64,000 nt of DNA from Verrucomicrobiota bacterium (GCA_049510745.1 JBEKYR010000014.1:1-64000), one strand, 5' to 3'; counted from the stretch's first letter, positions 38,846 to 58,056 are shown. Made by a program: numbers and translations. Notes: a model not told the origin generated them from the letters alone.

Positions 38846-38908
38846 GAGACGCGGGCGGCGGCGGGCCAAAACACCGGTTTCATTCAGCAAACCAACCGAC
38901 GCAACGCT

Positions 38909-38923
38909 TGGCACACAAGTTGC
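38909..38923 (+). promoter_or_regulatory. Sigma54 -24/-12 promoter
   Basis: TGGCAC-ACAAG-TTGC with canonical GG-N10-GC spacing. Confidence 0.8.
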
Positions 38924-39004
38924 CTACGGTTGGCTGACGTCAACTGTTTTCGGGGCGCAAATGAGCGCCTGCGAACTGGTTAACCACAATATTCAACGTA
39001 AATT

Positions 39005-39535
39005 ATGAACATACTTAGGAAAGCTCTGATAGCCGGCGCGTGCGCGTGCGCGCTCTTTTCAACTACGGGCAGCCTCATGGCCCAGGGACGCCCCAATTTC
39101 GATCCCGCCCAAATGAAAAAAGACAGGCTCGACAGCCTGCGCGATCAAATGGAGATCAAGGACGATCAGGAATGGACCGCGATCGAAGCCAAACTCAGCA
39201 AAGCCTACGATGCCCGCGCCAACGTCATGGGCATCAGCATGCGCGGCGCTTTCGGCCGCGGCGGACCACGCCGCAATCCGAACAACGGCAACGCGGATGA
39301 TCAGACGCAAAGGCCGCGCCGGAACCCGTTCGGCGACCCAAGCCCCGCCTTCGATGCCCTGCAAAAAGCCATCGATGACAAGGCCCCCAGCGCCGAGATC
39401 AAGACCAAGCTGGCCGCTTACCGCGCCGACGTCAAGGACCGCGAGGCCAAGCTCGCAGCGGCCCAGGAAGATTTGCGCAGCGTCCTGACGCCCCGCCAGG
39501 AAGCCATCGCCACCATCAACGGTCTTTTGCAATAG
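39005..39535 (+). CDS. Periplasmic helical protein, loosely Spy/CpxP/ZraP-like
   Basis: Signal peptide; helical segments, Gly/Arg-rich linker and C-terminal VLTPRQEA (LTxxQ-type motif). Confidence 0.65.
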   Translation: MNILRKALIAGACACALFSTTGSLMAQGRPNFDPAQMKKDRLDSLRDQMEIKDDQEWTAIEAKLSKAYDARANVMGISMRGAFGRGGPRRNPNNGNADDQTQRPRRNPFGDPSPAFDALQKAIDDKAPSAEIKTKLAAYRADVKDREAKLAAAQEDLRSVLTPRQEAIATINGLLQ

Positions 39536-39555
39536 ACTCCCCCAACGGGGAGTCT
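39534..39555 (+). terminator. Hairpin after the first gene of the sigma54 operon (weak terminator or stabiliser)
   Basis: AGACTCCCC-caac-GGGGAGTCT with no long U-tract. Confidence 0.55.
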
Positions 39556-39629
39556 TACTGTGGCCGCGCCGGGCGTTCCGAGGGGCGGACATCCCCGGAC
39601 GCCGGCGCCGCCGCAGGAGGCCCATTAAA

Positions 39630-41384: not shown

Positions 41385-41390
41385 CCCTCT

Positions 41391-42632
41391 ATGCCCGTTT
41401 TCGTTTACAAAGCGTTTCAAGCCGACGGCCAAACCGCCGAGGGCCAACTCGAGGCGGGCGGACGGCAGGAGGCTTTTCAGCGGATGGAAGAGAAAGGCCT
41501 GCGGCCCATCACGCTGGCGGAGAAAGCCGCCGCCGCGGAGAAAGACGGCAACGGCGCGCCGCCCCCAAGCGCGGCGTTCAGGTTTCAATCCAAGAAGGTC
41601 ACGCCGCGCATGCTGGAAAACTTCACCCGGCTGCTCTCCAGTTTGCTGGCGGCGGGCGTGCCGTTGAGCCGCGCGCTGGTCATTCTTTGCAAAGAGGCCG
41701 CCAGCCCCCTGGCCGCCGCCAAGTGGAAGCAGATTTACGACTCGGTCGTCGATGGCATTTCCCTGGCCGATTCCATGGCCACCATGCCGGACACCTTCCC
41801 GCGCGTCTATGTGGCGATGGTGTCGGCGGGCGAAACGGGCGGGTTCCTGGACCTGGTGCTGGCGCAAATCGCCGATTTCCAACTGCGGGAAAGAGACCTG
41901 CGCGGCAAGGTCACCGCGGCCATGCTTTACCCGGCCATCCTGCTCGTGCTCTCCATTGCCGTGTTGATCGTCCTGATGACATTTTTTATTCCGCGATTCC
42001 AAAAGATGTTCGAGGGTTTCGGCGGGCAATTGCCGCTGTTGACGCGGATGATCGTCGCCGTCAGCTACTGGATTCGGCACTACGGGCTTTTCATCGCCGT
42101 CGGGCTTGTGGTCACCGGATTGCTGGTGCGCAATTGGATCACCTCGGAGCGCGGCCGGCGGACCTGGGAAGGATTCATTATTCGCGTGCCGGTGCTGGGG
42201 CCGCTCTTGAGCCAATTTGCCATGGCCCGCTTTTGCCGGATGCTCGGCACGCTGCTCAACGCCGGCGTGCCGTTGGTGCAGGCCCTCAACGTCGCCCGCC
42301 GCTCCATCGGCAACCAGATCCTGGTCGATGCCGTCTCCAATTCCATCGAGCGGGTCAAGGAAGGCGCGCAATTGGGCGCCAGCCTCTCGGATTGCAAGTC
42401 GCTTTTCCCCAGCTCGGTCCTGGAAATGATTTCCGTCGGCGAAGAAAGTGGCAAGCTCGACCAGGAATTGGTCCGCATCGCCGGCGTGACGGAAACGGAC
42501 CTGGACCGGAACCTGAAAACGGCGGTGGCGTTTCTGGAGCCGTTGATGCTTTTTTTCATCGCCGGGTTTATTGGAACGATTTTCATCGGCATGATCTACC
42601 CGATTTTTGCCATGCAAGACTACATCAAATAA
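41391..42632 (+). CDS. gspF: T2SS platform protein GspF/PilC
   Basis: FTRLLSSLLAAGVPL, AGETGGFLD, AMLYP, VGEESGKLD, LEP. Confidence 0.95.
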   Translation: MPVFVYKAFQADGQTAEGQLEAGGRQEAFQRMEEKGLRPITLAEKAAAAEKDGNGAPPPSAAFRFQSKKVTPRMLENFTRLLSSLLAAGVPLSRALVILCKEAASPLAAAKWKQIYDSVVDGISLADSMATMPDTFPRVYVAMVSAGETGGFLDLVLAQIADFQLRERDLRGKVTAAMLYPAILLVLSIAVLIVLMTFFIPRFQKMFEGFGGQLPLLTRMIVAVSYWIRHYGLFIAVGLVVTGLLVRNWITSERGRRTWEGFIIRVPVLGPLLSQFAMARFCRMLGTLLNAGVPLVQALNVARRSIGNQILVDAVSNSIERVKEGAQLGASLSDCKSLFPSSVLEMISVGEESGKLDQELVRIAGVTETDLDRNLKTAVAFLEPLMLFFIAGFIGTIFIGMIYPIFAMQDYIK

Positions 42633-42647
42633 AAAGACAGGACATTT

Positions 42648-43088
42648 ATGAGAATAACCCCCCGCCATGCAAATCGCCCCGCCCGCCGGACTCAGGGCGC
42701 ATTCACGCTCGTTGAACTGCTCCTGGTGATGACCATTCTGGCCATTCTGGCCGGCATCGTCCTGCCGAAGATGGCCGGCAGGGGCGAACAAGCCCGCGTG
42801 GCGGCGGCAAAGACCCAGATTGAATCCTTCGGCACAGCCTTGGGCACATACGAAGTCGATAACGGCAACTATCCTCGCGGGCGGGACGGCTTGCAGGCCC
42901 TGATCGTCAAGCCGCGCGACGCCCTCAACTGGCACGGTCCGTACATGGAGAAGGATATTCCGCCGGATCCGTGGGGCAAAAAATACGTGTATGAATGCCC
43001 CGGCAAACACAACCCGTCCGGCTATGATCTCTACACGACCGGCCCCGACGGCACTGTTTATGGAAACTGGACAGTACAACAACGATAA
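42648..43088 (+). CDS. gspG: Major pseudopilin GspG
   Basis: AFTLVELLLV, YEVDNGNYP, GLQALI, WHGPYM, DPWGKKYVYECPG. Confidence 0.93.
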   Translation: MRITPRHANRPARRTQGAFTLVELLLVMTILAILAGIVLPKMAGRGEQARVAAAKTQIESFGTALGTYEVDNGNYPRGRDGLQALIVKPRDALNWHGPYMEKDIPPDPWGKKYVYECPGKHNPSGYDLYTTGPDGTVYGNWTVQQR

Positions 43089-43620
43089 GGCCCGGCGCCG
43101 CGCCGCCTTCACCTTGGTCGAATTGATCCTGGTCATGACCATCATGGTGATCTTGATCAGCCTGGTTTTCCCTTCCCTGAAGGGCTTCTTCCACGGGCGC
43201 AACCTCGACAACGAGGCGCGCCGGTTTTTGTCGTTGACACGATACGCCCAAAGCCGCGCCATCTCCGAGGGTCTGCCGGTCGAACTGTGGATGAACCCGC
43301 GCAGCGGCTCCTACGGCGTGCAGGCGCTCTCCGGCTACACGGAAACGCGCACCAATCCGATGGCCTTCAACCTCGACTCCACCGTGACGCTCGCCTTTTC
43401 CGCGCCGTCCTCCGTCCTGGTGCGCTCCAACTTCTGGACGCAGGCCCAAGGGCAGTTCGGCGCGGTGGGCAAAATCCGCTTCCAGCCCGACGGTTTTATC
43501 AGCGACACCAGCCCGGAGAACATTTTTTTTCGGCAGGGCGCGGACGGCCAGATTTGGATCGCGGAAACCCCCTCCCATTTGAGATATGACATTCAACCCG
43601 GCCAACCCAACCGCCGCTAA
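43060..43620 (+). CDS. gspH: Minor pseudopilin, GspH/FimT-like
   Basis: AFTLVELILV, RYAQSRAISEG, IRFQPDG; position after gspG. Confidence 0.8.
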   Translation: METGQYNNDKARRRAAFTLVELILVMTIMVILISLVFPSLKGFFHGRNLDNEARRFLSLTRYAQSRAISEGLPVELWMNPRSGSYGVQALSGYTETRTNPMAFNLDSTVTLAFSAPSSVLVRSNFWTQAQGQFGAVGKIRFQPDGFISDTSPENIFFRQGADGQIWIAETPSHLRYDIQPGQPNRR

Positions 43621-43996
43621 ACGCGCCCGCTCCGGCTTCACGCTGGCCGAGGTGCTGGCGGCGATGCTGTTTTTGGTCATCGTCATCCCGGTGGCCGTGC
43701 AGGGGTTGCATGTCGCCAGCATGGCCGGCGAAGTCAGCCAGCGCAAAATGGCCGCCGCCCGCATCGGCAACAAAATCCTCAACGAATTGAAGGTGACCGG
43801 CCAATTGCAAAACACCAGCCAAAGAGGCGTCGTGCAGGACCGCGGCCTGACTTACACATGGTCGGTCAAAAATCAGCCCTGGACGGAGGACACTCTCAGC
43901 CAGATGACCGTGGCCACCGTCACCGTCACTTATATGGCCCAGGGCAGGAGCTTCGACGTCAACCTGAGCACGCTGCTGCCGCCCGTCCAGCCATGA
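43586..43996 (+). CDS. gspI: Minor pseudopilin, GspI-like
   Basis: GFTLAEVLAAMLFL; size and gene order fit. Confidence 0.75.
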   Translation: MTFNPANPTAAKRARSGFTLAEVLAAMLFLVIVIPVAVQGLHVASMAGEVSQRKMAAARIGNKILNELKVTGQLQNTSQRGVVQDRGLTYTWSVKNQPWTEDTLSQMTVATVTVTYMAQGRSFDVNLSTLLPPVQP

Positions 43997-44682
43997 AACC
44001 GCCCCTCCATCCCAACCCTGCGCGCGCGTTCACGTTGCTGGAATTGCTCCTGGCCATTTCCATCATGTCCATCGTCCTGGTTGCGATCCACGGCGTTTTT
44101 TTCACGGCCATTCACCTGCGCAACGCCACCGTCAATGCCGTCGAAGCCGGCCTGCCGGTCGAACAAGCCCTGGAAGTCATGCAGCATGATCTGGCCAACA
44201 TCGTCGCCTCCACCAACGGCGTGCTCATCGGCCCGCTCCAAACCACCACTCCCACCAACGCCCTGCCCGACCAGATCGGCCCTGATTTTTACACCACCGG
44301 CGGAGAAATGGACGGCATGGTGCCGTGGGGCAATATCCAGAAGATTGATTATTTGCTCTCCACGCCGACCAACGGCGTTCGCGGTCCGGGCAAGGACCTC
44401 ATCCGCGCCGTCACCCGCAACTTGCTCCCCCTGAACCAGCCGCCCCAGCCGGACGAACAACATGCGCTCCTGAGCGGCGTCCAGACTTTGACGTTCCTCT
44501 ATTATGACGGCACGCAATGGGACCCCGATTGGGACACCACCCAGCAAACCAATCTGCCCCTGGCCATCAAGGTGCGCATTCAAATGGCCGCCGCCCGGGG
44601 CGTCGCCGCCGGCGGCCCGTTGGAACTGGTCGTGCCTGTGGATATTCTGCTCAACACCAACCCCGTCACCGCACTGCAATGA
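43993..44682 (+). CDS. gspJ: Minor pseudopilin, GspJ-like
   Basis: AFTLLELLLAISI, LLSGVQTLTFLYYDGTQW, LPLAIKVRI. Confidence 0.82.
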   Translation: MKPPLHPNPARAFTLLELLLAISIMSIVLVAIHGVFFTAIHLRNATVNAVEAGLPVEQALEVMQHDLANIVASTNGVLIGPLQTTTPTNALPDQIGPDFYTTGGEMDGMVPWGNIQKIDYLLSTPTNGVRGPGKDLIRAVTRNLLPLNQPPQPDEQHALLSGVQTLTFLYYDGTQWDPDWDTTQQTNLPLAIKVRIQMAAARGVAAGGPLELVVPVDILLNTNPVTALQ

Positions 44683-46121
44683 AACTGGCCGCCGCCAATT
44701 CGACTTCGTCCCGCGCCTCGGTGTTGATCATCGTGCTCTGGGTCGCCTTTGGCCTGGTCGCCATCACCCTCTATTTCGCCAACGCCATGTCGATGGAACT
44801 CAAGGCGGCCGATAACCGGGTCGCCAGCCTGGAAGCCGATCAAGCCATCGAGGGCGCCGCCCTTTACGTCAGCAACATCCTCGCCAACCGCGCCAACATG
44901 ATGATGATTCCCACCCCGGACAATTTCCGCGCCGACGGCGTGAAGGTGGGCGAGGCGACCTTCTGGCTGGTGGGCCGGGACACCAACGACCTGCAAACCT
45001 CCGCCCAGGGCGAGCAGCCCGTCTGGGGCCTCATCGATGAAGCCTCCAAGCTCAATCTCAACAGCGCCACCGCCGCCGAGCTGCAGAATCTTCCGCAAAT
45101 GACGGCGAACACGGCCGCCGCCATCTACGATTGGCAGACCGGCAGCAACAGCTCGCCCAGCACCGGCGGCGCCAAATCCGAAACCTATTCCGGTTTGCAG
45201 CCCGCCTACCTCTGCAAAAGCGCCCCCTACGAGAGCATCGACGAGTTGCGCCTGGTCTATGGCCTGAACATGGACCTGCTCTACGGCGAGGACGCCAACC
45301 TTAATGGCATCCTGGACCCCAACGAAAACGACGGCATGGTCACGCCGCCTACGGACAATTCCGACGGCATCCTCGATCCCGGCGTCCTGGAATACGTCAC
45401 CGTCTGGAGCCGCGAACCGACCCTGGACACCAACGGCTCGGCCCGCATCGCTGTCAACGATATTTCAAGCTTGACCTCGTTTCTCCAGCAAAGCTATCCC
45501 TCCCTGGTCTCCTACCTGGCTCCCTTCGGCGGCGGCGCAGGGGCGGCCGGCGGCGCGGGGACGGCCGCCGGCGGACGCGCCGGCGCTGGCACCGGCGCCG
45601 GGGCAACGCGTGGCGGAGCCGCCAGCGCCACCGCCGCCGCCGCTCCCACCAGCGTGCTGGACTTCTACATTCGCAGCGGCATGTCCGAAAGCGATTTTCA
45701 GCAAATCGAGCCATTTCTCATGAATACCAACTTGACGGGCTTGATTAACGTCAACACCGCCACCGCCACCGCCCTGGCGTGCGTCCCGGGCATCGGCCTG
45801 AACCAGGCGCCCCAAGTGCTCGCTTACCGCCAGTCCAATCCGCCGCAGACGCCCTCGATCACCTGGCTCAAAACCGCCCTGGGCACCACCGATCCGGCCA
45901 CGATCGCGCAGGTTGGCCCTTATGTCACCCCCTACTCCTTTCAATTCACCGCCGATGTCGTCGCGCTCGGACACCACAACCGCGGCTATCGGCGGGTCCG
46001 CTTTGTTTTTGATTGCAGCAGCGGCACGCCCCTGATCGTCTATCGCCAGGACCTGACCCATCTGGGATGGGCCTTGGGCAAAAAACTGCACGACCAATTG
46101 TTGGCCGATAACTCGAAATGA
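44679..46121 (+). CDS. gspK: Minor pseudopilin GspK
   Basis: RASVLIIVLW, DEASKLNLN, SIDELRLVYG, INVNTA. Confidence 0.88.
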   Translation: MKLAAANSTSSRASVLIIVLWVAFGLVAITLYFANAMSMELKAADNRVASLEADQAIEGAALYVSNILANRANMMMIPTPDNFRADGVKVGEATFWLVGRDTNDLQTSAQGEQPVWGLIDEASKLNLNSATAAELQNLPQMTANTAAAIYDWQTGSNSSPSTGGAKSETYSGLQPAYLCKSAPYESIDELRLVYGLNMDLLYGEDANLNGILDPNENDGMVTPPTDNSDGILDPGVLEYVTVWSREPTLDTNGSARIAVNDISSLTSFLQQSYPSLVSYLAPFGGGAGAAGGAGTAAGGRAGAGTGAGATRGGAASATAAAAPTSVLDFYIRSGMSESDFQQIEPFLMNTNLTGLINVNTATATALACVPGIGLNQAPQVLAYRQSNPPQTPSITWLKTALGTTDPATIAQVGPYVTPYSFQFTADVVALGHHNRGYRRVRFVFDCSSGTPLIVYRQDLTHLGWALGKKLHDQLLADNSK

Positions 46122-47560
46122 TCGCCTTTTTCAAATCCAAACGCGCCGCTTCCGTCCTGGGTTTGGCCCTGGACGGCAACCGGCTGGAAGCCGTCGTTCT
46201 ACGCCGCTCCAACGGAACGCTGCATGTCCGCAAAGCCGTCTCCGCCGACCTGGCGATGTCGCCGCTGACCGACGACCCGGAACTGGTCGGGCGCGAAATC
46301 CGCAATCACCTCGACCAGGCCGGCGTGCGCGAGCGGCGCTGCGCCGTCTGCCTGCCCCTGGGCTGGCTGCTGACGCTGCAGGTCACCGTGCCGGAATTGT
46401 CCGATGCCGACCGGGCCAGTTTCCTGCAACTGGAGGCCGAGCGGGGATTTCACGGCGGCCCCGAGGCGCTCTTCACCGCCCATTCCCTGTTCCGGCCGGT
46501 GGGCGGCGAGGCGTTCGCCACCTTGCTGGCCGTGCCGCGCAACCACCTCGATACCCTCGAACGGGTCCTGCGCGCCGCCAAGCTCAAGCCCGTCACCTTC
46601 GCCCTGGGCGTCGGCGCCCTCCAGCCCGCCGCCGGCGACACAGGGCGCGTCCTGGCCCTTTGCGTGCGCAGCAATAGTATTGACCTGCAAGTCAGCGGCG
46701 GCGGCGGCATCGTCGCCTTGCGCTCGCTGGACGGGGCCATTGAAACCCAGGGCGGGCAGAAGCGGATTTCGGCCGAGTTGACCGCGCGCGAGTTGCGCAT
46801 CACGCTGGGCCAGTTGCCCGGCGGCCTGGCCGGCGGCCCCGGCAAAATCCGCGTCTTCGGCCAGGGCGAAATGTGCCGCGAGTTCGTCCATGATATATCT
46901 CCGCGCCTGGAGGCGATGGGCCTGGCGGTGGAAACCGTGGACCGGGTCCCGGACGCGCTGTTCGACCCGCCGCCGCCGCCGGACTTGGCGGTGTCTCCGG
47001 CGCTGGCCCTGGCCGCGGCCTGGGTGCGGGGCGCCGATTCCACTCCCGAGTTTCTGCCTCCGCGCGTCCAGCCGTGGCAGCAATTGATCAGCACGCGCCT
47101 GTCCACCCGCAAACTGGCCTACGCGGGCGGGGCGGCCGCCGCCGTGGTTTTGGGCATTCTGCTTGCCTTCGGCGTGCAGCAATGGCAAATCCACAGCCTG
47201 CAATCCAAATGGAACGCCATCGCGCCGCTGGTCAGCGAGTTGACCGGCGACCAGGACCAGATCAAAAAATTCCGGCCCTGGTACGACCAGACGTTTCGCA
47301 ACCTGCGCATCCTGCGCCGCTTGACGGAGGCCTTTCCCGAAGACGGCTCGGTTTCCGCCAAAACGGTCGAGATTCGCGAAACGGCCGGCATCACCTGCTC
47401 CGGCCAGGCGCGGGACAAGGCGGCGTTCGTCCGCATGCACGACAAGCTGGGCGACGACACCAATGAGATCAGCAACCTGCACGCCGAGACCCGCGGCCAA
47501 AACCCGACGCAGTTCACCTTGAACTTCCAGTGGGAGGAAGGAGTGGCCAATGGAAACTAA
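46118..47560 (+). CDS. GspL / PilM-PilN-like assembly protein
   Basis: N-terminal VLGLALDG actin-like region, one TM helix, coiled coil and ferredoxin-like tail; gene order fits. Confidence 0.7.
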   Translation: MIAFFKSKRAASVLGLALDGNRLEAVVLRRSNGTLHVRKAVSADLAMSPLTDDPELVGREIRNHLDQAGVRERRCAVCLPLGWLLTLQVTVPELSDADRASFLQLEAERGFHGGPEALFTAHSLFRPVGGEAFATLLAVPRNHLDTLERVLRAAKLKPVTFALGVGALQPAAGDTGRVLALCVRSNSIDLQVSGGGGIVALRSLDGAIETQGGQKRISAELTARELRITLGQLPGGLAGGPGKIRVFGQGEMCREFVHDISPRLEAMGLAVETVDRVPDALFDPPPPPDLAVSPALALAAAWVRGADSTPEFLPPRVQPWQQLISTRLSTRKLAYAGGAAAAVVLGILLAFGVQQWQIHSLQSKWNAIAPLVSELTGDQDQIKKFRPWYDQTFRNLRILRRLTEAFPEDGSVSAKTVEIRETAGITCSGQARDKAAFVRMHDKLGDDTNEISNLHAETRGQNPTQFTLNFQWEEGVANGN

Positions 47561-48083
47561 GAACCGCGAGAAAATCCTGGCCATCGCCGCCGGCGTCTGC
47601 GCCGGCCTGTGGCTCTTCAACCTCCTGGTCATTACGCCCATGACCAACGCCTGGCACCGCCGCTCCGCCCAAATCGACAGCCTGCGCAAGGCCATCGCCG
47701 AAGGCACGATGCTCCTCCGGCGGCAGGACACGGTGCGGGGGCGCTGGGACTACATGCGGACCAACGCCCTCTCCAGCAACCCGACCGTCGCCGAGCGGCA
47801 GTTGTTCGTCGCCTTTGACCGCTGGGTCGGCGCCAGCGGCGTGACCGAAGGCTCCTTCCGCCCCCAGTTGCACGAGACCGACGACAATTATTCCACCATC
47901 GAATGCCGGGCGGATGTGACGGGCACCCCCGAAGCCGTCACCCAGTTTCTTTTTGACATGGAAAAAGACCCGATTGGGGTTAAATTGGAGTCATGCGAAC
48001 TGACCTCACGCGACGACAACGGACGACAACTGGCGCTCGCCCTGGACATGAGCGGCTTGATTTTGCCCACACCCAATCCATGA
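47550..48083 (+). CDS. GspM / PilO-like protein
   Basis: NREKIL followed by a TM helix, coiled coil and VTGTPEAVTQFLFDME. Confidence 0.7.
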   Translation: METKNREKILAIAAGVCAGLWLFNLLVITPMTNAWHRRSAQIDSLRKAIAEGTMLLRRQDTVRGRWDYMRTNALSSNPTVAERQLFVAFDRWVGASGVTEGSFRPQLHETDDNYSTIECRADVTGTPEAVTQFLFDMEKDPIGVKLESCELTSRDDNGRQLALALDMSGLILPTPNP

Positions 48084-48652
48084 AATCGTTCGCCCCCATC
48101 ATTATCGCGTCGTTGCTGGTTGCATCCATGAGGGCGCCGGCCCAGGAAACCAATGCCGGGGCCAGGCCGGACTTTAATTCGTTCAAAATCATCGCTGAAA
48201 GAAATATATTTGACCCGACCCGCACGGGGCGGCGCCGGCCCGGCGCCCCGCCCCGCCGCGTCGAGCGCGTCAGCCTGGTGGGCACGAGCATCGATAACGG
48301 GGACGCGGTGGCTATCTTCACAGGCAACGGCGTGCCGGAGCGGCCCTTCAAGACGGGTGATACAGTGAAGGATTTCAAAATTGTCCAGATCACACTGGAT
48401 AGCGTCCGCCTGACGGGCGTGACCAACACCAATATGTTTGTGATGGACTACGACAGCCGAAGGAGCCTGCGCCGCGAGGAGAACGGGCCGTGGCAGGGGT
48501 CGTCCGACCTCTCCGACCCGGTCCTTATTCCCAGCGGCAATGCCGATGACCCGGCGCCGTCCGCCAGCGCCTCCGCCCCGCCCGCGGGCGGCGGCGGCGA
48601 GAGCGACATTATCAAACGACTCAGATTGAAACGCGAACAGGAGGAAAAATGA
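48080..48652 (+). CDS. GspC-like protein
   Basis: N-terminal hydrophobic segment, IAERNIFDP, SLVGT, GDTVKDFKIVQITLDSVRL; lies before the secretin genes. Confidence 0.6.
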   Translation: MKSFAPIIIASLLVASMRAPAQETNAGARPDFNSFKIIAERNIFDPTRTGRRRPGAPPRRVERVSLVGTSIDNGDAVAIFTGNGVPERPFKTGDTVKDFKIVQITLDSVRLTGVTNTNMFVMDYDSRRSLRREENGPWQGSSDLSDPVLIPSGNADDPAPSASASAPPAGGGGESDIIKRLRLKREQEEK

Positions 48653-50214
48653 AAATGAAACACCTTGTCACTATTCTATTGACTACCTTTGCCGCCGGAT
48701 GGCTCGCCGCCGCCGCGGACGACACCACCAACGCGCCCGCCCCCGGCCCGCCCCCGGACGCGACCGCCGCGAACACCGCGCCGACCCCCGCCCCGGCGCC
48801 GGAAACGCCGGACACAAACCTGCCGGCCGAACCGACGCCGACCAACGGCCTTATCCTCAACTTCCACGATGCGCCTTTGAACGCCGTGCTTAATTATCTC
48901 AGCGCCAAGGCGGGGCTGATCATCATGTCGGATGTCGATTTGCGGGGCAAGGTGAGCGTCGTGGCCAAACAACCGGTCACCACCAACGAGATCGTCGATT
49001 TGCTCAGCGAACAACTGGGCAAGAACAACTACGCCGTCAACCTCAACGGCCGCACTCTGACCATTATGGATGCCACCCGCGCCAAGACCAGCGCCCTGAC
49101 TCCCGTCATCGTCGCCAACGGCGGTCCGAACACGATTCCGATCAACGACATCGTCGTCACCGAAATCCTGCCGGTCCACACCCTCAACCCGGGGCAACTG
49201 GTCAAGGACCTTGAAACCCTCATCCCCCCGGGCGACACCGTCACCGCCAACGACGCGGGCAACGCCATCCTCATGACCGCTTCGCAAAAAGACATTCATC
49301 GCATCTCCGAAATCATCGCCGCCCTCGACAGTTCGGCCATTTCCGACGTCGAGGTCTTTATCCTCAAATTCGCCGATGCCAAGTCGGTCGCCTCCGAATT
49401 GAAGGAAGTTTTCCAAAGCGCCGATTCGGACATCACCCGCGCCAACACGCGCAACACGTTTGCCGGCCGCGCCGGCCGGGGCGGGTTCGGCGGCGGGTTC
49501 AACCCCTTCGGTGGCGGCGGCGGCGGGGGCGGCGGCACCGATGACAGCACGAAAACCTCGCAAACCCACGCCGTCTTCGTCTCCGACGATCAAATGAACG
49601 CCGTCGTGGCCAGCACGCCGCCCGACTACATGCGCACCGTCAGCAACATCGTTGAGCAGTTGGACCAACCGAGCCAGGACATCACCGAAATCAAAGTCTT
49701 CCATTTGAAGAACGCCGACCCCCAGGAGATCGCCGACGAACTGTCCACCCTGTTTCCTTCAAGCACCAGTTCGGACCAGAACAGCCGGACGATGGGCTTT
49801 CGGTTTGGCCCGCCGTTTATGCAGCAGCAATCCTCGGCCAATTCCCAAAGCACCCGCATGAAACACCAAACGACCGTGGTGGCCGTGGCCGACCGCCGCA
49901 AGCAAGCGGTGGTCGTCACGGCTTCGAAGGATATGATGACGGAGATCAGAGCGATGATTGCCGACTTGGACGAAGGCACCCAGGGCGTGCAGCATGTTTT
50001 TGCCTTGCCCATCGACAGCGCAGACCCGGCCAGTGTGCAGGAAACCATGACCGGCCTCTTTGCCGGCTCCGGTGCCTCCTCCAAACAAACGCAGACGCAA
50101 ACGGCCTTGAGCGCCCGCGAGCAGAGCAATGCCAACAGCCAATCCACCACCACCACTTCCTCCTCCTCCAGCAGCTTCGGCACCGGCGCCAGCGGAACGA
50201 CCGGAATTCGGTGA
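48649..50214 (+). CDS. gspD: Secretin N-terminal part (N0 plus secretin-N repeats, no barrel)
   Basis: Signal peptide; N0 LILNFHDAPL...RGKVSV; repeats VFILKFADA, VFHLKNADP...VADRRKQAVVV...IADLD. Confidence 0.85.
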   Translation: MKMKHLVTILLTTFAAGWLAAAADDTTNAPAPGPPPDATAANTAPTPAPAPETPDTNLPAEPTPTNGLILNFHDAPLNAVLNYLSAKAGLIIMSDVDLRGKVSVVAKQPVTTNEIVDLLSEQLGKNNYAVNLNGRTLTIMDATRAKTSALTPVIVANGGPNTIPINDIVVTEILPVHTLNPGQLVKDLETLIPPGDTVTANDAGNAILMTASQKDIHRISEIIAALDSSAISDVEVFILKFADAKSVASELKEVFQSADSDITRANTRNTFAGRAGRGGFGGGFNPFGGGGGGGGGTDDSTKTSQTHAVFVSDDQMNAVVASTPPDYMRTVSNIVEQLDQPSQDITEIKVFHLKNADPQEIADELSTLFPSSTSSDQNSRTMGFRFGPPFMQQQSSANSQSTRMKHQTTVVAVADRRKQAVVVTASKDMMTEIRAMIADLDEGTQGVQHVFALPIDSADPASVQETMTGLFAGSGASSKQTQTQTALSAREQSNANSQSTTTTSSSSSSFGTGASGTTGIR

Positions 50215-50243
50215 TCGCAACATCTTTCCAACCAATCAAAAAT

Positions 50244-51491
50244 ATGACCATCCAAACTGCGAAACTTCGGGCCGGCCGGTGGACGGCGCTAGGCCTCTGT
50301 TGCCTGACTCTTCCATTGCTGGCGCAAACCCGGACCGGCGGCGGCGGCGGCGGGGGTGGCGGCTTTGGCGGCGGCGGCTTTGGCGGCGGCGGGGGCGGGG
50401 GGGGCGCGGGACGAACTTCCACCGCCACCTCCGGCACTTCCACCATTGAACGCCCGGCCAACGGCCAGGTCGGCACGGCCAACTTCTATGTCGATCAGGA
50501 TTCGCGGCAGTTGTTTGTCATCGCCGACGACGCGACCGCCGGCTACGTAAGCAACGTGGTGGCCAACCTCAACCGCCCCAAACCGCAGGTCTTGATCAAG
50601 GTCGTCTTCCTGGAAGTCACCTATAATAAAGGCGTGGACATCGGAGTTGAAGGCGGCGTCACCAAAAGAATCAACGCCTCCACCACCAACTCCGCCTCCA
50701 GCCTTTTCGGTCTGGCCCAACAGGGCATCACCCCCAATTCCGCCGGCGTCAACACCCTCCCCGGCGCCGGCCTCTACACCGTCGTCGGCAACGATTTCTC
50801 CGCCACCTTGCGGGCCATCTCCGAAGTCGGGAAGGTCGAAGTCCTCTCCCGCCCCACCGTGCTGGCCCGCAACAATCAGCAAGCCACCATTGTCGTCGGC
50901 CAGGAGGTTCCTCTCATCACCGGCGTCACTTATGACACTTTTGGCAACGAGCACAACGCCATCTCCTACCAGAACGTCGGCATCATCCTCCAAGTCACAC
51001 CGTTCATCACCTCCGACAACATGGTCGAGATGATCCTGGCGCCGCAAATCTCGGAGGTCGATCCCAGCCACTCCCAGGCCATCGCTTACACCACTAACGG
51101 CCAGGCCATCACCGCCCCGTATATCGACATCCGTTCCGCCAACACGGTGGTCGTCACGCCCGACGGCCAGACCGTGGTCATCGGCGGCTTGATGCAAAAC
51201 AGCCGCTCCAGCACCGACAGCAAAATTCCCATTCTGGGGGACATCCCGCTCCTGGGCGCGTTGTTCCATCACAAACTCCAATCCGACACCAAGACCGAGT
51301 TGATTATTCTGCTCACTCCCTACGTGGTCAAGACGCCGTCCGACCTGGCCCGGATGAGCGCCGACGAGCGTGGCCGGGCGCAACTGGCGCCCAAGGCCTT
51401 CTCCCAGGCCGAGTTGAACCAATACCTGGAAGGCGGACAAAGCAAACCACCGCCCCCGGCCGCCCCGTCCGGCTCCCCCCATGCCCGATAA
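50244..51491 (+). CDS. gspD: Secretin C-terminal barrel part with its own signal peptide
   Basis: PQVLIKVVFLEV, VLSRPTVLARNNQQATIVVGQEVP, NVGIILQVTP, DGQTVVIGGL, KIPILGDIPLLGALF, KTELIILLTP. Confidence 0.9.
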   Translation: MTIQTAKLRAGRWTALGLCCLTLPLLAQTRTGGGGGGGGGFGGGGFGGGGGGGGAGRTSTATSGTSTIERPANGQVGTANFYVDQDSRQLFVIADDATAGYVSNVVANLNRPKPQVLIKVVFLEVTYNKGVDIGVEGGVTKRINASTTNSASSLFGLAQQGITPNSAGVNTLPGAGLYTVVGNDFSATLRAISEVGKVEVLSRPTVLARNNQQATIVVGQEVPLITGVTYDTFGNEHNAISYQNVGIILQVTPFITSDNMVEMILAPQISEVDPSHSQAIAYTTNGQAITAPYIDIRSANTVVVTPDGQTVVIGGLMQNSRSSTDSKIPILGDIPLLGALFHHKLQSDTKTELIILLTPYVVKTPSDLARMSADERGRAQLAPKAFSQAELNQYLEGGQSKPPPPAAPSGSPHAR

Positions 51492-51504
51492 AAAGAATTG
51501 ACTC

Positions 51505-52947
51505 ATGATGACTCGCCGTGGATGGGCTGTTTATGGTGTGCTGGCGGCCGTGTGGGTCGCCCTGATTGCCTGGCAGACAGGCGAGCACGTCCGCGTCCGC
51601 AAAGCGCTCCACGATAATCTCATCGATCGGGGCCGCGCGAAAACGACGGCCTGCGGCAAGCTCATGCGCTCGCCCCGCTTTTCCCCGGGCATCATCAACC
51701 GGGAACGGCTCGAAGGCGGCCTCAGTGTCCTGGTCGATACCAATGAGCTTCGCTCGGTCGAACTGCTCAACAATTCCGACGAGGTGGTCGCCTCCGCCGG
51801 GCCGCCCATCAAGTTGCCGCCGCCCAGCGACTTTGAGGGCGGCGTCTATTGGGGCGACGACACCGCCATTCTGAAGTATCCGATTGAATTGGGAACCAAC
51901 ATGGTGGCCGAACTGGTCATCCCCTCCGCGGAGTTGCTTTCCATGCGCACCAATCGTTTGGCCGCCGCCGGCATCAACCCGGACGACCGCCCGCCCTTCG
52001 CCCCCGACCAGCCCCCCCGCCGGGTGGATTTTCGCACCGAGCGTCCTTACTGGATGAAGGAGGAAGATTACAGGGCGCTGATCAACACCAAGAGCGCTCA
52101 CACCTTTGTCGTCGTCTTGTCCGCCCAGCCCGTCCTGGCCGCCCAGCGCGATGATTTCTGGATGCGCGTGTTCATTGCCATGATGGGCACGGTGGCCGTC
52201 GCCGGCTACGGCCTGGCGTGGCGCAGCCTGGTCAAAACGTCCGAGCTGCAATTGCGCCTGGTCCGCGCCAGCGAACAGAACCTGCACCTCAAGGAAATGA
52301 ACATCGCCGCCGCCGGCCTGGCCCATGAAACCCGCAACCCTCTCAACATCATTCGCGGCCTGGCCCAACTCATCTCCAAACACGAGGAGGCCGCCCCTGA
52401 AATCCGCGCCAAGTCCCGCGACATCATTAACGAAACCGACCGCGTCACCGCCCAACTCAACGGCTTCATCAACTACTCCCGTCCCCGCGAAGTGCGCCGC
52501 GCCCCCACCGACCTCGGCGCCGTCGCCGCCGAAGTCGCCCGCGCCCTCAATTACGACCTCGAGGAGAAGAAAATCCAGCTCGAAGTCCTGGTCGAATCCA
52601 TGGTCATCGAAGCCGACGAACAACTGCTGCGCCAGGCCCTCTTCAACCTCGTCCTCAACGCCGTGCAAGCCGTGCCCCCCCAGGGCGTCATTCGCATCCG
52701 CGCCAGCCGGCGCACCAACGAGGAAGCCTTCATCGAAATCTCCGACAACGGCCCCGGCGTGCCCGCCGAGCATCGCGCCGAGATTTTCAAACCCTACTTC
52801 ACCACCCATGCCGAGGGCACCGGCCTGGGTCTGGCCGTCGTCCAGCAAATCGTCCTGGCCCACGGCTGGGAGATCGAGTGCCTGGCCAACCAGCCCGCCG
52901 GCGCGCTCTTTCGCATTTCGCACGTCAAGCTTAAGATGAAGGAGTGA
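51505..52947 (+). CDS. Membrane sensor histidine kinase (ZraS/NtrB-like HisKA)
   Basis: Two TM helices, AAGLAHETRNPL, LRQALFNLVLNAVQA, DNGPG, GTGLGL. Confidence 0.92.
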   Translation: MMTRRGWAVYGVLAAVWVALIAWQTGEHVRVRKALHDNLIDRGRAKTTACGKLMRSPRFSPGIINRERLEGGLSVLVDTNELRSVELLNNSDEVVASAGPPIKLPPPSDFEGGVYWGDDTAILKYPIELGTNMVAELVIPSAELLSMRTNRLAAAGINPDDRPPFAPDQPPRRVDFRTERPYWMKEEDYRALINTKSAHTFVVVLSAQPVLAAQRDDFWMRVFIAMMGTVAVAGYGLAWRSLVKTSELQLRLVRASEQNLHLKEMNIAAAGLAHETRNPLNIIRGLAQLISKHEEAAPEIRAKSRDIINETDRVTAQLNGFINYSRPREVRRAPTDLGAVAAEVARALNYDLEEKKIQLEVLVESMVIEADEQLLRQALFNLVLNAVQAVPPQGVIRIRASRRTNEEAFIEISDNGPGVPAEHRAEIFKPYFTTHAEGTGLGLAVVQQIVLAHGWEIECLANQPAGALFRISHVKLKMKE

Positions 52948-54323
52948 AGAAAGTGTCCAACGACGTTTCCATCGGCCCGCGCGCGCCACGACTCCTGATT
53001 GTCGATGACGACGCCGGCCAGCGCAGCCTGCTGGATTCCTTTCTCAGCAGCCAGGGCTTCGAAACCGTCCCGGTCTCCTCCGGCGAACGCGCCCTCGAAA
53101 TCCTGCGCGAACAGGAAATCAACATGATGATCTCCGACGTGCGCATGCCCGGCCTGACCGGCCTGGAAACCCTCCGCCTGGCCCGCCAGCAACACGGCTC
53201 TTTTCCCATTCTTTTGGTCACCGCCTACGCCGATGTCCGCGACGCCGTCGGCGCCATGCGCGACGGCGCTGTCAATTATCTTTCCAAACCGATTGACCTG
53301 GACGAATTGCTCGCCTCCGTCCGCCAGGCCACCGGCCTGTCCCGGCGCGTGCCGCTCAAATTCGACGCCGGCAAGCAATTGCCCTCCAACATCGTCGCCG
53401 CCAGCCCCCTCATGCAGGCCCTTTTCCGCGACGTCTCCCTCATCGCCGCCTCCGAAAGCCGCGTGCTCATCACCGGCGAAAGCGGGGTGGGCAAGGAAGT
53501 CGTGGCCGATGTCATCCACACTTGGAGCGCGCGGGCCGCCGGAAACCTGGTCAAGGTCAACTGCGCCGCCATTCCCGAAACGTTGCTGGAGAGCGAACTT
53601 TTTGGGCACGAAAAAGGCGCCTTTACCGGCGCAGTCGCCCAGCGCATTGGCCGCTTCCAGATGGCCGACGGCGGCACGATTTTCCTGGATGAAATCGCCG
53701 ACATGGCCCAGCAGCTTCAGGCCAAATTGTTGCGCGTCGCCCAGGATGGCCGTTTCCAGCGCATTGGCTCGAACTCCGAAATCCACGTCAACGCCCGCAT
53801 CCTCGCCGCCACCAACCGCAACCTGGAGGAGGAAGTCAAAGCCGGCCGTTTCCGCGAGGATTTGTTTTACCGGCTCAACGTGGTGGAACTGACCGTGCCC
53901 CCGCTGCGGGAACGGCGCGAGGACATTCTCCCGCTGGCCAATCAATTGCTGGCCGGGTTCACCCAGGGCCGCGCCCGTCTCTCTTCCTCCGCCGCCGCCT
54001 CTCTGGAGGCTTACTCCTGGCCCGGCAACGTCCGCGAACTGGCCAACGCCATGGAACGCGCCGCCTTGTTGTGCCGCGGCGATCTCATTGTGCCCGAACA
54101 CCTGCCCCCCCGCATCCAGTCTGGCGCCCGTCCCGGTGCCGCGCTGGAATCGGCCGACGCCGGCAAGCTCGAGGAAGTCGAAGCGCAAGCCGTTCTCCAG
54201 GCCTTGCGCAAGAACGATTTCAACCGCACCGCCACAGCCAAGGCCCTGGGCATCAGCCGTCGCGCGATGATCTACAAACTCCAGCGCCTGCGCGAGCTTG
54301 GCCACAACGTCGATGCCCCGTAG
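52944..54323 (+). CDS. Sigma54-dependent response regulator (NtrC/ZraR family)
   Basis: REC domain, GESGVGKE, ESELFGHEKGAFTGA, FREDLFYRLNV, WPGNVREL, Fis-type HTH. Confidence 0.95.
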   Translation: MKKVSNDVSIGPRAPRLLIVDDDAGQRSLLDSFLSSQGFETVPVSSGERALEILREQEINMMISDVRMPGLTGLETLRLARQQHGSFPILLVTAYADVRDAVGAMRDGAVNYLSKPIDLDELLASVRQATGLSRRVPLKFDAGKQLPSNIVAASPLMQALFRDVSLIAASESRVLITGESGVGKEVVADVIHTWSARAAGNLVKVNCAAIPETLLESELFGHEKGAFTGAVAQRIGRFQMADGGTIFLDEIADMAQQLQAKLLRVAQDGRFQRIGSNSEIHVNARILAATNRNLEEEVKAGRFREDLFYRLNVVELTVPPLRERREDILPLANQLLAGFTQGRARLSSSAAASLEAYSWPGNVRELANAMERAALLCRGDLIVPEHLPPRIQSGARPGAALESADAGKLEEVEAQAVLQALRKNDFNRTATAKALGISRRAMIYKLQRLRELGHNVDAP

Positions 54324-54350: not shown

Positions 54351-57300
54351 ATGAAAAGAACAGTCCTGGCACTGCTGGCAATAGCTGCCATCGCTGGTTG
54401 CATGCTGAGTCCGGACGGGATGAAAGGCGCCGACGATATGGCCCAGGGGTTTGCCAATCCGCCCTCTTCCGCCCGTCCGTGGGTTTATTGGTTTCCGCTC
54501 GACGGAAACATCACCAGCAACGGCATCACCGCCGATCTGGAGGCGATGAAACGGGTCGGGATTGGCGGCGTGCTCTACATGGAAACAGACCAAGGCGCGC
54601 CAGAGGGGCCGGCCCGATTCGCGGGACCTTTGTGGCGCGACCTCTTCAAACATATCTGCTCGGAAGCGCGCCGCCTGGGCTTGGAGGTGAACATGAACAA
54701 CGACGCCGGCTGGTGCGGCAGCGGCGGCCCTTGGATCACGCCGGAGCTGTCGATGCAGCGGGTGGTTTGGACCGTGACCAATGTGTCCGGGCCGCTGGTT
54801 TTCACCGGGACCCTCCCCCAGCCCGAAGCCAAATTGAATTTCTATCGCGACATCGCCCTGCTCGCCTTCCCCACACCCGCAATCAGTTACCTGATACCGA
54901 ACATTGGCGACAAGTCGGCCGAAGGGTCGGGGGAGATTCCGCTTCACACCGTTTTTGCGGCGCTGCCTTCGGAGGCGGTCATTCCGCGCGACCGCATCGT
55001 GGACCTCACGGCGCGCCTTGGGGAGGGTGGCCGTCTGGTCTGGGACGTGCCGGCAGGCCGTTGGACGCTCTTGCGCCTCGGACATACGACCACTGGAGTG
55101 GAGAACCACCCCGCCCCGCCCGGCGGCTTGGGATTGGAGAGCGACAAGTTGAGCAAGGAGGCGTCCGACGCGGCGTTTGCCGGCCTGATGGCCAAGGTCA
55201 TTGCTGACTCCAAATCGCTGGCGGGCAAAGGCAAGACGCTGGTTTCAACTCATATCGACAGTTGGGAAACCGGCTCCCAGAATTGGACCCCGCGTTTCCG
55301 CAGGGAGTTCAAGCGGTTGCGCGGTTACGACCCGCTGCCTTTCTTGCCGGTGATGACTGGGCGGGTGGTGGACAATTTGGAAGTTTCCGAACGGTTCCTC
55401 TGGGACGTTCGCAAAACGGTGGACGATCTGCTGCTGGAGAATTACGCCGGCCAATTCCATAAATTGGCCAACCGCCGCGGCCTGCGGCTTTCCATCGAAG
55501 CTTACTTTGGCGAGCCTGCGGAGGACATGGCTTACGCCGGGCGCGCCGACGAGCCAATGGGCGAATTCTGGTCGTGGACCAGATATGGCGCCGCCAGCAG
55601 TTGCACCGAGATGGCTTCGGCGGCCCATATTTATGGCAAGCCCATTTTGGGCGCCGAAGCCTTCACCGCCACTGACGGCGAAAAATGGCAGGGGTATCCC
55701 GGCTCGATCAAAGAACTGGGCGACTGGGCCTTCTGCGAAGGGATCAATCGTTTCGTCTTCCACCGCTATGCCCTTCAACCGTGGACCAATCCCGACCGCC
55801 TTCCCGGCATGTCCATGGGACCGTGGGGGCTTCATTACGAGCGCACTCAAACTTGGTGGGAACAGTCCAAGGCGTGGCACGAATATCTGGCCCGCTGCCA
55901 GTTCATGCTCCGGCAGGGGCTTTTCGCGGCCGACCTCTGTTTTCTTGAGCCGGAAGCGTCCCCACAGGGTTTTCACTCGCCAGTCAAATCCGGCTACGAC
56001 CGTCCGGGTTACGGTTTTGACGGCTGCACGGCGGAAGTTGTGCTCACGCGCATGTCGGTCAAAGCCGGACGGCTTGTATTGCCCGACGGCATGAGCTACC
56101 GGATGCTGGTGTTGCCCAAGGTCGGAACGATGACTCCGCGTCTGTTGGGCAAGATCAAGGAGTTGGTCGCCGCCGGCGCCACCGTTGTGGGCGCGCCGCC
56201 GGTGAAATCGCCCAGTCTGAGCGATTATCCCAAGTGCGACGACGAGGTGAAAAGACTGGCTGGCGAGTTGTGGGGAACAGGCGAACCGCCGGAGCAAGCC
56301 ACCGGGCGTCCCTTTGGCAAAGGCAAAATCATCTGGGGTGGAGAGTTCCGGCTCGATCCCGAACCCACGCCGCAACCCGTCAGTCAACTCAGTTCAGGGA
56401 AATGGATTTGGCGCGCGGAAGGTAATCCCGCGGAAGCCGCGCCGCCAGGCGCCCGTTACTTCCGCCGCCTTCTGACCGTCGAGGCCGCAAGCCCCATCTC
56501 CTCCGCCCGGCTGGAGATGACCGCCGATAATTCTTTCCAGTGCTGGGTCAATGGCCAGAGCGCCGGCAGCGGAGACGACTGGAACCGGATCGTTTCCATG
56601 GACCTCACCCACCTGCTCAAACCGGGCGCGAACCTGCTCGCGGTGGCCGCCGTCAACGGCGGAGACCATCCCAACCCAGCCGGCCTCATCGGATTGCTGA
56701 GCATCAAATACGCCGACGGACGTTCTCAGGAAATCCCCACCGACCAGAGATGGGAGGCGGCGGAAAGCGCGAGCCGCCAATGGATTTCCGACGCGACCGC
56801 ATCCGACGGATGGGCCGCCGCGATGGAACTCGGCCCCCTGGGCATGTCACCTTGGAACTATCCCGCCATGAGTCTCGGCAACCCGGACTCCATTCCTGAC
56901 ATCGATTCTCTTTGCCGCCTGTTGGCCGCGATGAGGGTGCCGGCGGACTTCAGCTTTCAGGCCGCGGACGCCTCGCCATGCCTGCGCTTCATCCATCGCG
57001 TCGCCGGTGGCACGGACCTCTATTTTGTCGCCAATAAATACCCGCGCCCGGAGGACGCCTTGTGCTCCTTCCGCGTTTACGGTCGCCGTCCGGAATTATG
57101 GCGGCCGGATACAGGGCGCATCGAAAGAGCCGCAGCCTATGACGAGCAAGACGGCTGCGTCCGCCTCCCTGTTCGTTTCGATCCGAATGGTTCGGTCTTT
57201 GTTGTATTCCGCGACGGCGCGCCGGTGGAGGAGGACCGGATTACCGCGATGAGCTGCGACGGCGCGCCTCTCCTGACCACCGCTTTGGCCGAGTCCGCTT

Positions 57301-58028
57301 ATGTCTCAGCCACCCGCGGGCGGTCCGAGGCAGTGGAACTGACGCGAGATCAGAGCGGACGCGTGGCAGCCGAAGTCTCGCGGCCGGGCAAGTATGAGAT
57401 GGCGTCCGCCGACGGTCGAACCCGGCGATTCGAGTTGGCCTTCGTGCCTCAGCCCATCGAAATCACCGGACCGTGGGACTTGCGCTTCCCTCCAAACTGG
57501 GGAGCGCCGGAACACGTCACACTCGACCGGCTGATCTCATGGAGTGACCATCCCGACGCCGGCGTGAAGTACTTTTCCGGCGCCGCCACTTACTGCAAGA
57601 CGATTCAGGTCCCGGCCAGCCTGATCGAGGGGAATCGCCGGTTTTATCTGGACCTCGGCGAGGTGGCTGTCATCGCGCAAGTCAAGCTCAACGGCCAGGA
57701 CCTCGGCATCCTCTGGAAAGCGCCCTATCGCGCTGATGTCACCGGCGTTCTCCGGCCGGGGGACAACGATCTGGAGATCAAGGTCGTCAACCTTTGGATC
57801 AACCGCCTCATCGGCGACGAGCAATTGCCGGAGGACAGCGAGCGCAACAGCAACGGCACGCTCAAGCAGTGGCCGGAGTGGCTTGGGAAGGGCCAGCCCA
57901 GCCCAACCGGGCGCTTCACCTTCACCAGTTGGCGGCTTTGGCACAAGAACGATCGATTGGTTGAATCCGGACTGCTTGGCCCGGTGACCCTGCAAACATC
58001 GGCAATAGTCACTGTTGCCGCCCAATAG
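54351..58028 (+). CDS. GH106 alpha-L-rhamnosidase-like glycoside hydrolase with inserted beta-sandwich
   Basis: FANPPSSARPWVYW, GITADLEAMKRVGIGG, GWCGSGGPWITPE, HIDSWE, MGEFW, GAEAFT, GINRFVFH, SGLLGPV. Confidence 0.9.
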   Translation: MKRTVLALLAIAAIAGCMLSPDGMKGADDMAQGFANPPSSARPWVYWFPLDGNITSNGITADLEAMKRVGIGGVLYMETDQGAPEGPARFAGPLWRDLFKHICSEARRLGLEVNMNNDAGWCGSGGPWITPELSMQRVVWTVTNVSGPLVFTGTLPQPEAKLNFYRDIALLAFPTPAISYLIPNIGDKSAEGSGEIPLHTVFAALPSEAVIPRDRIVDLTARLGEGGRLVWDVPAGRWTLLRLGHTTTGVENHPAPPGGLGLESDKLSKEASDAAFAGLMAKVIADSKSLAGKGKTLVSTHIDSWETGSQNWTPRFRREFKRLRGYDPLPFLPVMTGRVVDNLEVSERFLWDVRKTVDDLLLENYAGQFHKLANRRGLRLSIEAYFGEPAEDMAYAGRADEPMGEFWSWTRYGAASSCTEMASAAHIYGKPILGAEAFTATDGEKWQGYPGSIKELGDWAFCEGINRFVFHRYALQPWTNPDRLPGMSMGPWGLHYERTQTWWEQSKAWHEYLARCQFMLRQGLFAADLCFLEPEASPQGFHSPVKSGYDRPGYGFDGCTAEVVLTRMSVKAGRLVLPDGMSYRMLVLPKVGTMTPRLLGKIKELVAAGATVVGAPPVKSPSLSDYPKCDDEVKRLAGELWGTGEPPEQATGRPFGKGKIIWGGEFRLDPEPTPQPVSQLSSGKWIWRAEGNPAEAAPPGARYFRRLLTVEAASPISSARLEMTADNSFQCWVNGQSAGSGDDWNRIVSMDLTHLLKPGANLLAVAAVNGGDHPNPAGLIGLLSIKYADGRSQEIPTDQRWEAAESASRQWISDATASDGWAAAMELGPLGMSPWNYPAMSLGNPDSIPDIDSLCRLLAAMRVPADFSFQAADASPCLRFIHRVAGGTDLYFVANKYPRPEDALCSFRVYGRRPELWRPDTGRIERAAAYDEQDGCVRLPVRFDPNGSVFVVFRDGAPVEEDRITAMSCDGAPLLTTALAESAYVSATRGRSEAVELTRDQSGRVAAEVSRPGKYEMASADGRTRRFELAFVPQPIEITGPWDLRFPPNWGAPEHVTLDRLISWSDHPDAGVKYFSGAATYCKTIQVPASLIEGNRRFYLDLGEVAVIAQVKLNGQDLGILWKAPYRADVTGVLRPGDNDLEIKVVNLWINRLIGDEQLPEDSERNSNGTLKQWPEWLGKGQPSPTGRFTFTSWRLWHKNDRLVESGLLGPVTLQTSAIVTVAAQ

Positions 58029-58056
58029 AAATCGGCGTCCGTGCCGTTCGCAAAAC

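Follow-up and report, generated by a model that had tools for sequence, protein, structure and literature searches.

The locus described here raises the question of whether a secretin can be built from two separately exported chains when the break between them falls inside one of its folded domains. The DNA in question is a stretch of 64,000 nucleotides from a Verrucomicrobiota bacterium (GCA_049510745.1, JBEKYR010000014.1:1-64000; referred to here as the window), in which two adjacent genes, D1 and D2, occupy the secretin position of a type II secretion system (T2SS) operon (Table 1). The initial annotation had proposed a secretin split in two, with the break inside an N3-type domain, and this proposal was borne out by the reading frames, the Pfam matches, and the AlphaFold2 models.

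Architecture and conservation of the two-gene secretin

From its N terminus, D1 comprises a signal peptide, a Pro/Ala linker, N0, three complete repeats (N1, N2, and N2'), the N-terminal half of N3, and a Ser/Thr tail. D2 comprises a predicted signal peptide (aa 1 to 27), a Gly-rich linker, the C-terminal half of N3, the secretin barrel, and two C-terminal helices. Both layouts agree with those first annotated. The D2 frame differs from the D1 frame, and the D2 ATG lies 29 nt past the D1 stop. The predicted cleavage site of D2 precedes a near-invariant Gln28; the D1 tail contains a near-invariant Arg490, and its motif was found in 153 of 207 tails.

The Pfam search of D1 returned N0 (PF21305; aa 70 to 130; 30.7 bits) and three Secretin_N stretches (PF03958) but no barrel domain, while that of D2 returned PF00263 only (160 bits; cutoff, 27.5), with no BON match. 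The GspD profile TIGR02517 was divided between the two proteins (profile positions 1 to 303 on D1 and 275 to 599 on D2), with scores of 180.8 and 227.7, respectively (sum, 408.5), each below the cutoff of 351.35. The best fold matches of D2 in Foldseek were T2SS secretins. Because two frames are involved and neither alone reaches the TIGR02517 cutoff, D1 and D2 are not a canonical GspD; they act like GspD yet fall outside its canonical membership, given that N3 is not intact on one polypeptide.

In the AlphaFold2 models, which are of monomers, D1 contained complete strand-helix-strand-strand-helix units at aa 169 to 226, 233 to 338, and 347 to 441, followed by a lone helix (aa 460 to 471); the preceding residues (aa 449 to 454) were not called as a strand and had no sheet partner. 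The only elements modeled before the barrel of D2 were two strands (aa 80 to 84 and 89 to 93) and one helix (aa 96 to 110). Residues 24 to 70 had a predicted local distance difference test (pLDDT) score of <50, and nothing upstream was ordered except the signal helix. Together, the D1 half and the D2 half make exactly one N domain, without gaps or duplicated elements.

The same split was present in related genomes. With all loci pooled, 218 of 218 distinct D1-D2 pairs were split and none was fused. Pairs were counted as distinct D2 sequences preceded by a D1, and a further 15 D2 loci situated <250 bases from a locus edge were left unjudged. Among 30 loci from 41 related genomes, both halves were in view in 28, all of which were split (28/28). 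In the best 80 of 531 confirmed matches from a species collection, both halves were in view in 78, again all split (78/78), and the other 2 were ended by a contig end. Every pair (218/218) had a hydrophobic 10-mer downstream of the D1 stop and ahead of the half domain, compared with 0 of 164 internal loops, and a stricter test for a signal consisting of Met, basic residues, and a hydrophobic stretch was passed by 160 of 166. At least 293 of 401 genomes of the order carry D1, though neither half passes the GspD cutoff, which is of consequence for annotation. In a sample of the phylum (401 genomes), D2 occurred in 7, including this genome; the other 6 were all split, and 5 of these 6 lie outside the order. 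We conclude that the two-gene split is real and old and that it has been conserved in a broad group of Verrucomicrobia. Searches of the open-access literature turned up no description of it.

Several candidate exceptions were rejected. P0007 (its D1 runs into D2 out of frame, with an internal signal-like stretch), P0001 to P0006 (D2-type proteins with long tails, or chimeric), and P0121 (its D1 has a frameshift) had seemed to be fused or otherwise divided members. L055 and L056 were also discarded (the breaks are in other secretins and lack a signal peptide), as were L099, L015, and L016-type cases (the breaks lie inside D1 or D2). The locus was also present under record titles naming Bifidobacterium, Akkermansia, Haliangiales, and Dongiaceae (L115, L122, L124, L126, L128, L134, L083, and L139). 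These titles may be wrong, and hence unfit for widening the host range, because L134 nests among Verrucomicrobiota sequences.

Proposed rebuilding of N3 from two chains

N3 is regarded as the nucleator of secretin assembly and as a helper in gate opening. According to published accounts, it is required for pore assembly (PMC8134430), it has a variable insertion between the first helix and the second strand, and its ring packs under the barrel via a hydrophobic ring interface (PMC6155069); in pIV, the N3 loop is described as disordered (10.1101/2021.07.20.453082). Our preferred reading of the locus, to which we give a probability of about 0.7 on the basis of the sequences and models, is that both chains are exported and that N3 is rebuilt in the periplasm. 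D1 and D2 would each be exported by Sec through their own signal peptides. Strand 1 and helix 1 of D1 would then pack onto strands 2 and 3 and helix 2 of D2, at a D1:D2 ratio of about 1:1 around the ring, and the pore ring would be joined noncovalently to the entry tube through the rebuilt N3. This N3 ring would support barrel assembly, like the N3 of one-chain secretins, and the N0 of D1 would link to GspC.

In an analysis of 203 pairs, both halves retained the pattern of hydrophobic and buried residues of intact repeats, and the mean column entropy was 1.61 bits for the D1 half and 1.49 bits for the D2 half, compared with 1.23 to 1.50 bits for intact halves. The number of complete N repeats per D1 was 2 or 3 in the loci and 4 or 5 in P0366, P0398, and P0358, and D1 proteins with 2, 3, 4, or 5 complete repeats all terminate in the same half domain (the half domain was not scored as the last part in 11 of 218 D1 sequences). 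Regarding the earlier suggestion that N3 is rebuilt in trans, the complementarity of the halves and the preservation of the core pattern hold, while the contact itself is something that we infer. Complex prediction with alignments for D2 residues 66 to 395 and D1 residues 343 to 500 gave 0.24 and 0.23 (mark, 0.32; controls not folded). In mean-field direct coupling analysis between the halves (203 pairs; effective number of sequences, ~105), the cross-validated positive controls (intact N2 and N2') were barely separated from mismatched controls.

Some observations speak against rebuilding. The D1 half is somewhat less conserved than intact first halves (1.61 versus 1.23 and 1.32 bits), and the first half of N3 shares just 59% identity with that of a congener. 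Isolated XcpQ N0-N2 is described as forming rings unaided (PMC5646246); therefore, D1 might dock as a ring without N3 rebuilding. In addition, two short proteins considered below (P0140 and P0193) may function as barrels that have just half of the domain.

These points lead to a rival explanation that we consider unlikely but take seriously, namely, that D2, its N3 trimmed, needs no partner to form the pore and that D1 makes a ring of its own, docking loosely on D2 or linking it to GspC in the manner proposed for RhcC1. Besides the XcpQ rings, published descriptions of RhcC1 as a proposed linker to a separate secretin (PMC3459982) and of a mitochondrial GspD that oligomerizes without any N domain (PMC8134430) are in keeping with it, as is the faster divergence of the D1 half in orphan copies; a conserved D2 motif just ahead of strand 2 could cover the exposed core. 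However, the buried pattern is preserved in full by the D1 half of 203 sequences, this half persists as the repeat number changes, the AlphaFold2 model of D2 has no substitute strand or helix, and the second cut in the N2 loop of some relatives (see below) leaves two mid-tube half domains with no other evident partner. If N3 is indeed rebuilt from the two chains, pore formation would be tied to the arrival of the entry tube, with N3 existing only once the two exported proteins meet. Pore and vestibule could then be separately expressed, deleted, or swapped, which is impossible for one-chain secretins.

Origin of the split

The closest single-chain relatives were planctomycete-type GspDs (~41% identity to D2 and 30 to 34% to D1). 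In their N3, helix 1 and strand 2 are connected by a long Gly/Ser/Thr loop, which coincides with the position of the cut, and the span of the N3 loop in single-chain relatives had a median of 90 residues (82 domains). The D1 tail is likely the first part of this ancestral loop, and from the sequences, we read the D1 tail and the D2 linker as its two ends. D1 and D2 each formed one clade in quick trees (SH-like approximate likelihood ratio test [SH-aLRT], 98 and 100, respectively), and the split clade has a single origin. In the N0-N1 tree, the split clade grouped with planctomycete-type chains and was separate from the remaining secretins of the order (97). The simplest reading is single-gene fission: a planctomycete-type GspD of one chain was likely broken within its long Gly/Ser N3 loop, and a new signal peptide was gained. 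Two points count against it: the barrel tree leaves the join of the split clade to the single chains open, and the single-chain comparison set, which was chosen by similarity to D2, is biased because the selection ran through D2.

We regard as very improbable an Rhc-like replacement, in which D1 would be the stump of one secretin and D2 would have been recruited from another. The rhizobial pair is described as having arisen by such a replacement (PMC3459982), and D2 is on a long branch, but the two genes lie side by side in colinear order, their halves of N3 complement each other exactly, and D1 and D2 are both closest to the same planctomycete-type single chains.

Integrity of the two reading frames

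Even less credible is the production of one chain by programmed frameshifting or stop read-through, with the second signal peptide being incidental. The 29-nt gap and a D2 frame that is open upstream of its ATG would permit this in the present genome. Over the 218 pairs, however, the three relative D1/D2 frames occurred 81, 73, and 64 times, and the D1 stops were TAA (99), TGA (84), and TAG (35). The presence of all three frames and all three stops, in similar numbers, excludes a shared frameshift or read-through signal. Moreover, the D2 frame is closed soon past the D1 stop in many loci, and the hydrophobic signal-like stretch is universal.

The initial annotation had argued that the break was no frameshift artefact, and the 218 split pairs with their mixed frames and stops, together with the contigs crossing the junction at 50200 to 50250, confirmed this. 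Logan contigs from four runs matched the window from the D1 stop through the D2 start, with neither a differing letter nor a gap (X5, X6, and X7, samples independent of the assembly, and X1, a possible source sample); the Gly repeat at 50325 to 50413 was crossed by no Logan contig. The possibility of a sequencing or assembly artefact, or of a pseudogene in decay, suggested by the metagenome-type assembly and by true frameshift errors in the Gly-rich loops of relatives (L302, L099, L015, L055, and L056), is refuted by the consistently split pairs and the indel-free junction in independent samples, and such error cases lack a new signal peptide; the proportion of nonsynonymous differences (pN) was lower than that of synonymous differences (pS) in all folded regions (12 pairwise comparisons).

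Recurrent cuts in related proteins

Three chains occur in L045 and in L146/L148, which are nearly identical to each other: D1 is cut again after helix 1 of N2, in the N2 loop, and the resulting middle piece starts with a signal-like N terminus of its own. L045 and L146/L148 sit apart in the trees, but the approximately unbiased (AU) test did not reject a single origin of the second cuts (P = 0.185). L302 was rejected as a three-chain form (its break lacks a signal peptide and resembles a frameshift error). Among 120 short relatives of a single-chain barrel, two (P0140, a Candidatus Brocadiaceae GspD by NCBI name, and P0193) had a signal-like stretch directly before the second half domain. Both are placed among single chains in the tree, where starred branches require two origins or more; judging from their sequences, they look to have been cut independently at the same place.

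Other unusual proteins share parts with D1 and D2. Four large proteins whose N terminus is anti-sigma-like or of the BlaR1 M56 type (L048:4759-6729, L049:3030-6932, L050:4554-8582, and L051:2082-6407) are patchworks of D1 and D2 pieces, two of which add VWA or secretin-fragment parts; in L048, a D1-like tail is joined straight to a D2-like linker and half domain. These mosaics occur in one genus-level group. The same order also has giant single-chain secretins of ~4,000 aa with many N repeats (L052, L053, and L054), and the top 150 profile matches (P0250 to P0399) include well over 100 proteins of 2,000 to 5,500 aa.

Additional D1 copies and the shared promoter-like motif

This genome carries a second intact D1 on another contig (C5:97514-98950, corresponding to L031:4518-5951; minus strand; 478 aa; 61% identical to D1). 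The copy sits between housekeeping genes, with no neighboring secretion genes, and the genome has one D2. Two full-length D1 genes were found in 10 of 25 genomes of the family (8 with an orphan and 2 with a tandem copy), each with one D2-clade gene, and the extra copies arose several times. All of them keep a scoring terminal half, that of the C5 orphan being the weakest (7.7 bits against 20.5); in its terminal half, pN (0.31) and pS (0.42) approached each other most closely among the folded regions.

A putative sigma-54-type motif before the operon head and one before the C5 orphan are identical in 16 of 19 letters and lie 96 and 45 bases upstream, respectively. The genome has 24 strict sigma-54 sites, and the expectation for the loose pattern is 0.015 occurrences in 300 bases. 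The motif was also present before the two other orphans of the same clade (G022 and G004) but not before the remaining 5 orphans. A scan of 12 further operon loci, two of them with short flanks, located it ahead of the operon head in only 4. The shared motif fits putative coexpression of the orphan D1 with the single pore.

The extra D1 copies beside one D2 and the common motif lend indirect support to an exchangeable vestibule. In such a modular secretin, one D2 ring would take interchangeable D1 entry tubes by split-domain complementation, giving mixed or alternative vestibules; we offer this as a tentative possibility that we still doubt. As part of it, the N-repeat loop may be a general cut-and-plug joint, used at least two to three times in evolution. 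The greater divergence of the docking half of the C5 orphan weakens the exchangeable-vestibule reading.

Tandem D1 duplicates occur inside the operon in two loci (L039:10032-13041 and L040:9362-12447), and the copies in L040 are 96 to 98% identical in N0-N2 versus 78% in the terminal half. The orphan D1 genes of G024 and G009 follow a homologue of the 39005 gene and stand beside an OmpR-type two-component pair, and those of G002 and G012 have spaced TTAAC repeats upstream, common to both (L033:1184-5866, L035:1259-6119, L032:4601-8545, and L036 for these four genomes).

Comparison with other secretins

D1-D2 has the same order of N0, N repeats, N3, and barrel as single-chain GspD, PulD, and XcpQ (TIGR02517; PDB 6hcg, 5wq7, and 5wln) and, as with GspD, the secretin is the last structural gene of a gspE-F-G-H-I-J-K-L-M-C operon. 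GspD secretins form a gated outer-membrane pore of 12 to 15 subunits. Unlike single-chain GspD, D1-D2 consists of two chains with two signal peptides (predicted) and a cut in N3, and most D1 members have one extra N repeat. Planctomycete-type GspDs (P0008, P0010, and P0124) share the loop at the cut position but are one chain.

Split secretins, including chains with half an N domain, are already published for other systems (PMC3459982, PMC3574062, and PMC8134430). In the mitochondrial T2SS of heteroloboseans, jakobids, and malawimonads, GspD is described as several polypeptides (GspD, GspDL, and GspDN1 to GspDN3), two of which together correspond to one Secretin_N domain, GspDN2 being its C-terminal half and GspDN3 its N-terminal half (PMC8134430); thus, a cut inside an N domain has precedent. 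As described there, the mitochondrial system differs in being eukaryotic, with small stand-alone halves, loss of N0, and a truncated barrel, and the bacterial donor of the mitochondrial T2SS is left unresolved (PMC8134430). Given that the record of a Limisphaera isolate (L141) carries the split, D1-D2 offers a bacterial, cultivable model for the half-N-domain proteins of protist mitochondria.

RhcC1/RhcC2 of the rhizobial type III secretion system (T3SS) and HrcIIC1/HrcIIC2 of P. syringae also have the N-part and the pore on two genes (PMC3459982 and PMC3574062). In these accounts, RhcC1/RhcC2 differs in belonging to a T3SS, in having two origins (a T3SS stump and a Tad secretin), and in that the genes are not adjacent, and the pair is not described there as being cut inside an N domain. 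D1-D2 is not of the Rhc type; it lies in a T2SS locus, has no BON match, and has both parts nearest to the same single-chain group. In the type IVb pilus, a separate N0-like protein, BfpG, is reported to join the secretin BfpB in a 1:1 ratio through strand pairing close to the N3 ring; BfpB differs in being a complete lipoprotein secretin with an intact N3, and BfpG is an accessory protein rather than a fragment (PMC12531336).

The T2SS operon and its surroundings

The locus contains the gene set of a T2SS, secretin included. It starts with the gene for a small exported protein, which is followed by gspE, gspF, and gspG, the genes for three minor pseudopilins, gspK, a gene at the L position, gspM, gspC, D1, and D2, and it ends with the kinase and regulator genes. 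The best NCBIfam matches of the operon proteins were GspE, GspF, GspG, GspK, GspM, and GspC, with GspG alone passing the curated cutoff and the others below it. The H/I/J and L labels were assigned from the prepilin motif and position, the NCBIfam search of the L-position gene giving no matches. No pilotin gene was recognized within the operon, and a scan of 48000 to 51700 for sigma-70 promoters and terminators gave no elements between D1 and D2. The gene order is kept in the loci of relatives, and the kinase adjoins D2 in 60 of 70 named loci with sufficient flank.

TABLE 1 Positions of the secretin genes, their parts, and the surrounding operon in the window
Feature	Position	Strand	Basis or note
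D1, periplasmic N-module of secretin, 521 aa, stop TGA	48649-50214	+	
N3 first half (strand 1 and helix 1), D1 aa 449-471	49993-50061	+	
Ser/Thr/Gly-rich D1 tail with short conserved helix (aa 486-498)	50062-50211	+	
D1 stop (TGA) and 29-nt AT-rich spacer	50212-50243	+	
D2, pore module, 415 aa, start ATG	50244-51491	+	
Predicted second signal peptide (D2)	50244-50324	+	Hydropathy heuristic and conservation
N3 second half (strands 2-3 and helix 2), D2 aa ~69-113	50448-50582	+	
Complete type II secretion operon	39005-54323	+	Within the 64-kb window
Rest of T2SS operon before the secretin genes	39005-48652	+	Profile matches, prepilin motif, position
Small exported helical protein, operon head	39005-39535	+	
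Histidine kinase and sigma-54-dependent response regulator, operon end	51505-54323	+	
Sigma-54-type -24/-12 motif before operon head	38907-38925	+	Pattern scan

A homologue of the 39005 gene had a weak match to PF13801, a heavy-metal-resistance family (E value, 0.004). The trio of small exported protein, kinase, and sigma-54 regulator is reminiscent of ZraP-ZraSR envelope-stress modules, and by this analogy, the operon may be induced by stress.

Upstream of the operon (36082 to 38791) are a signal-peptidase-like S26 gene, a tetratricopeptide repeat (TPR) gene, and a PilT-family ATPase gene; PilT was not seen at this position in the long loci of relatives. Downstream (54351 to 63789), by sequence appearance, are a gene for a 1,225-aa glycoside-hydrolase-like lipoprotein and a resistance-nodulation-division (RND) efflux pump operon. 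Among the matches listed, the nearest named relatives carry the labels Limisphaerales or Verrucomicrobiia. The runs containing this DNA are peat and wetland metagenomes, with no RNA data set listed among them. The genome has three other secretins, all of them single chain (C37:15181-17493, C46:21219-24017, and C22:69035-70732).

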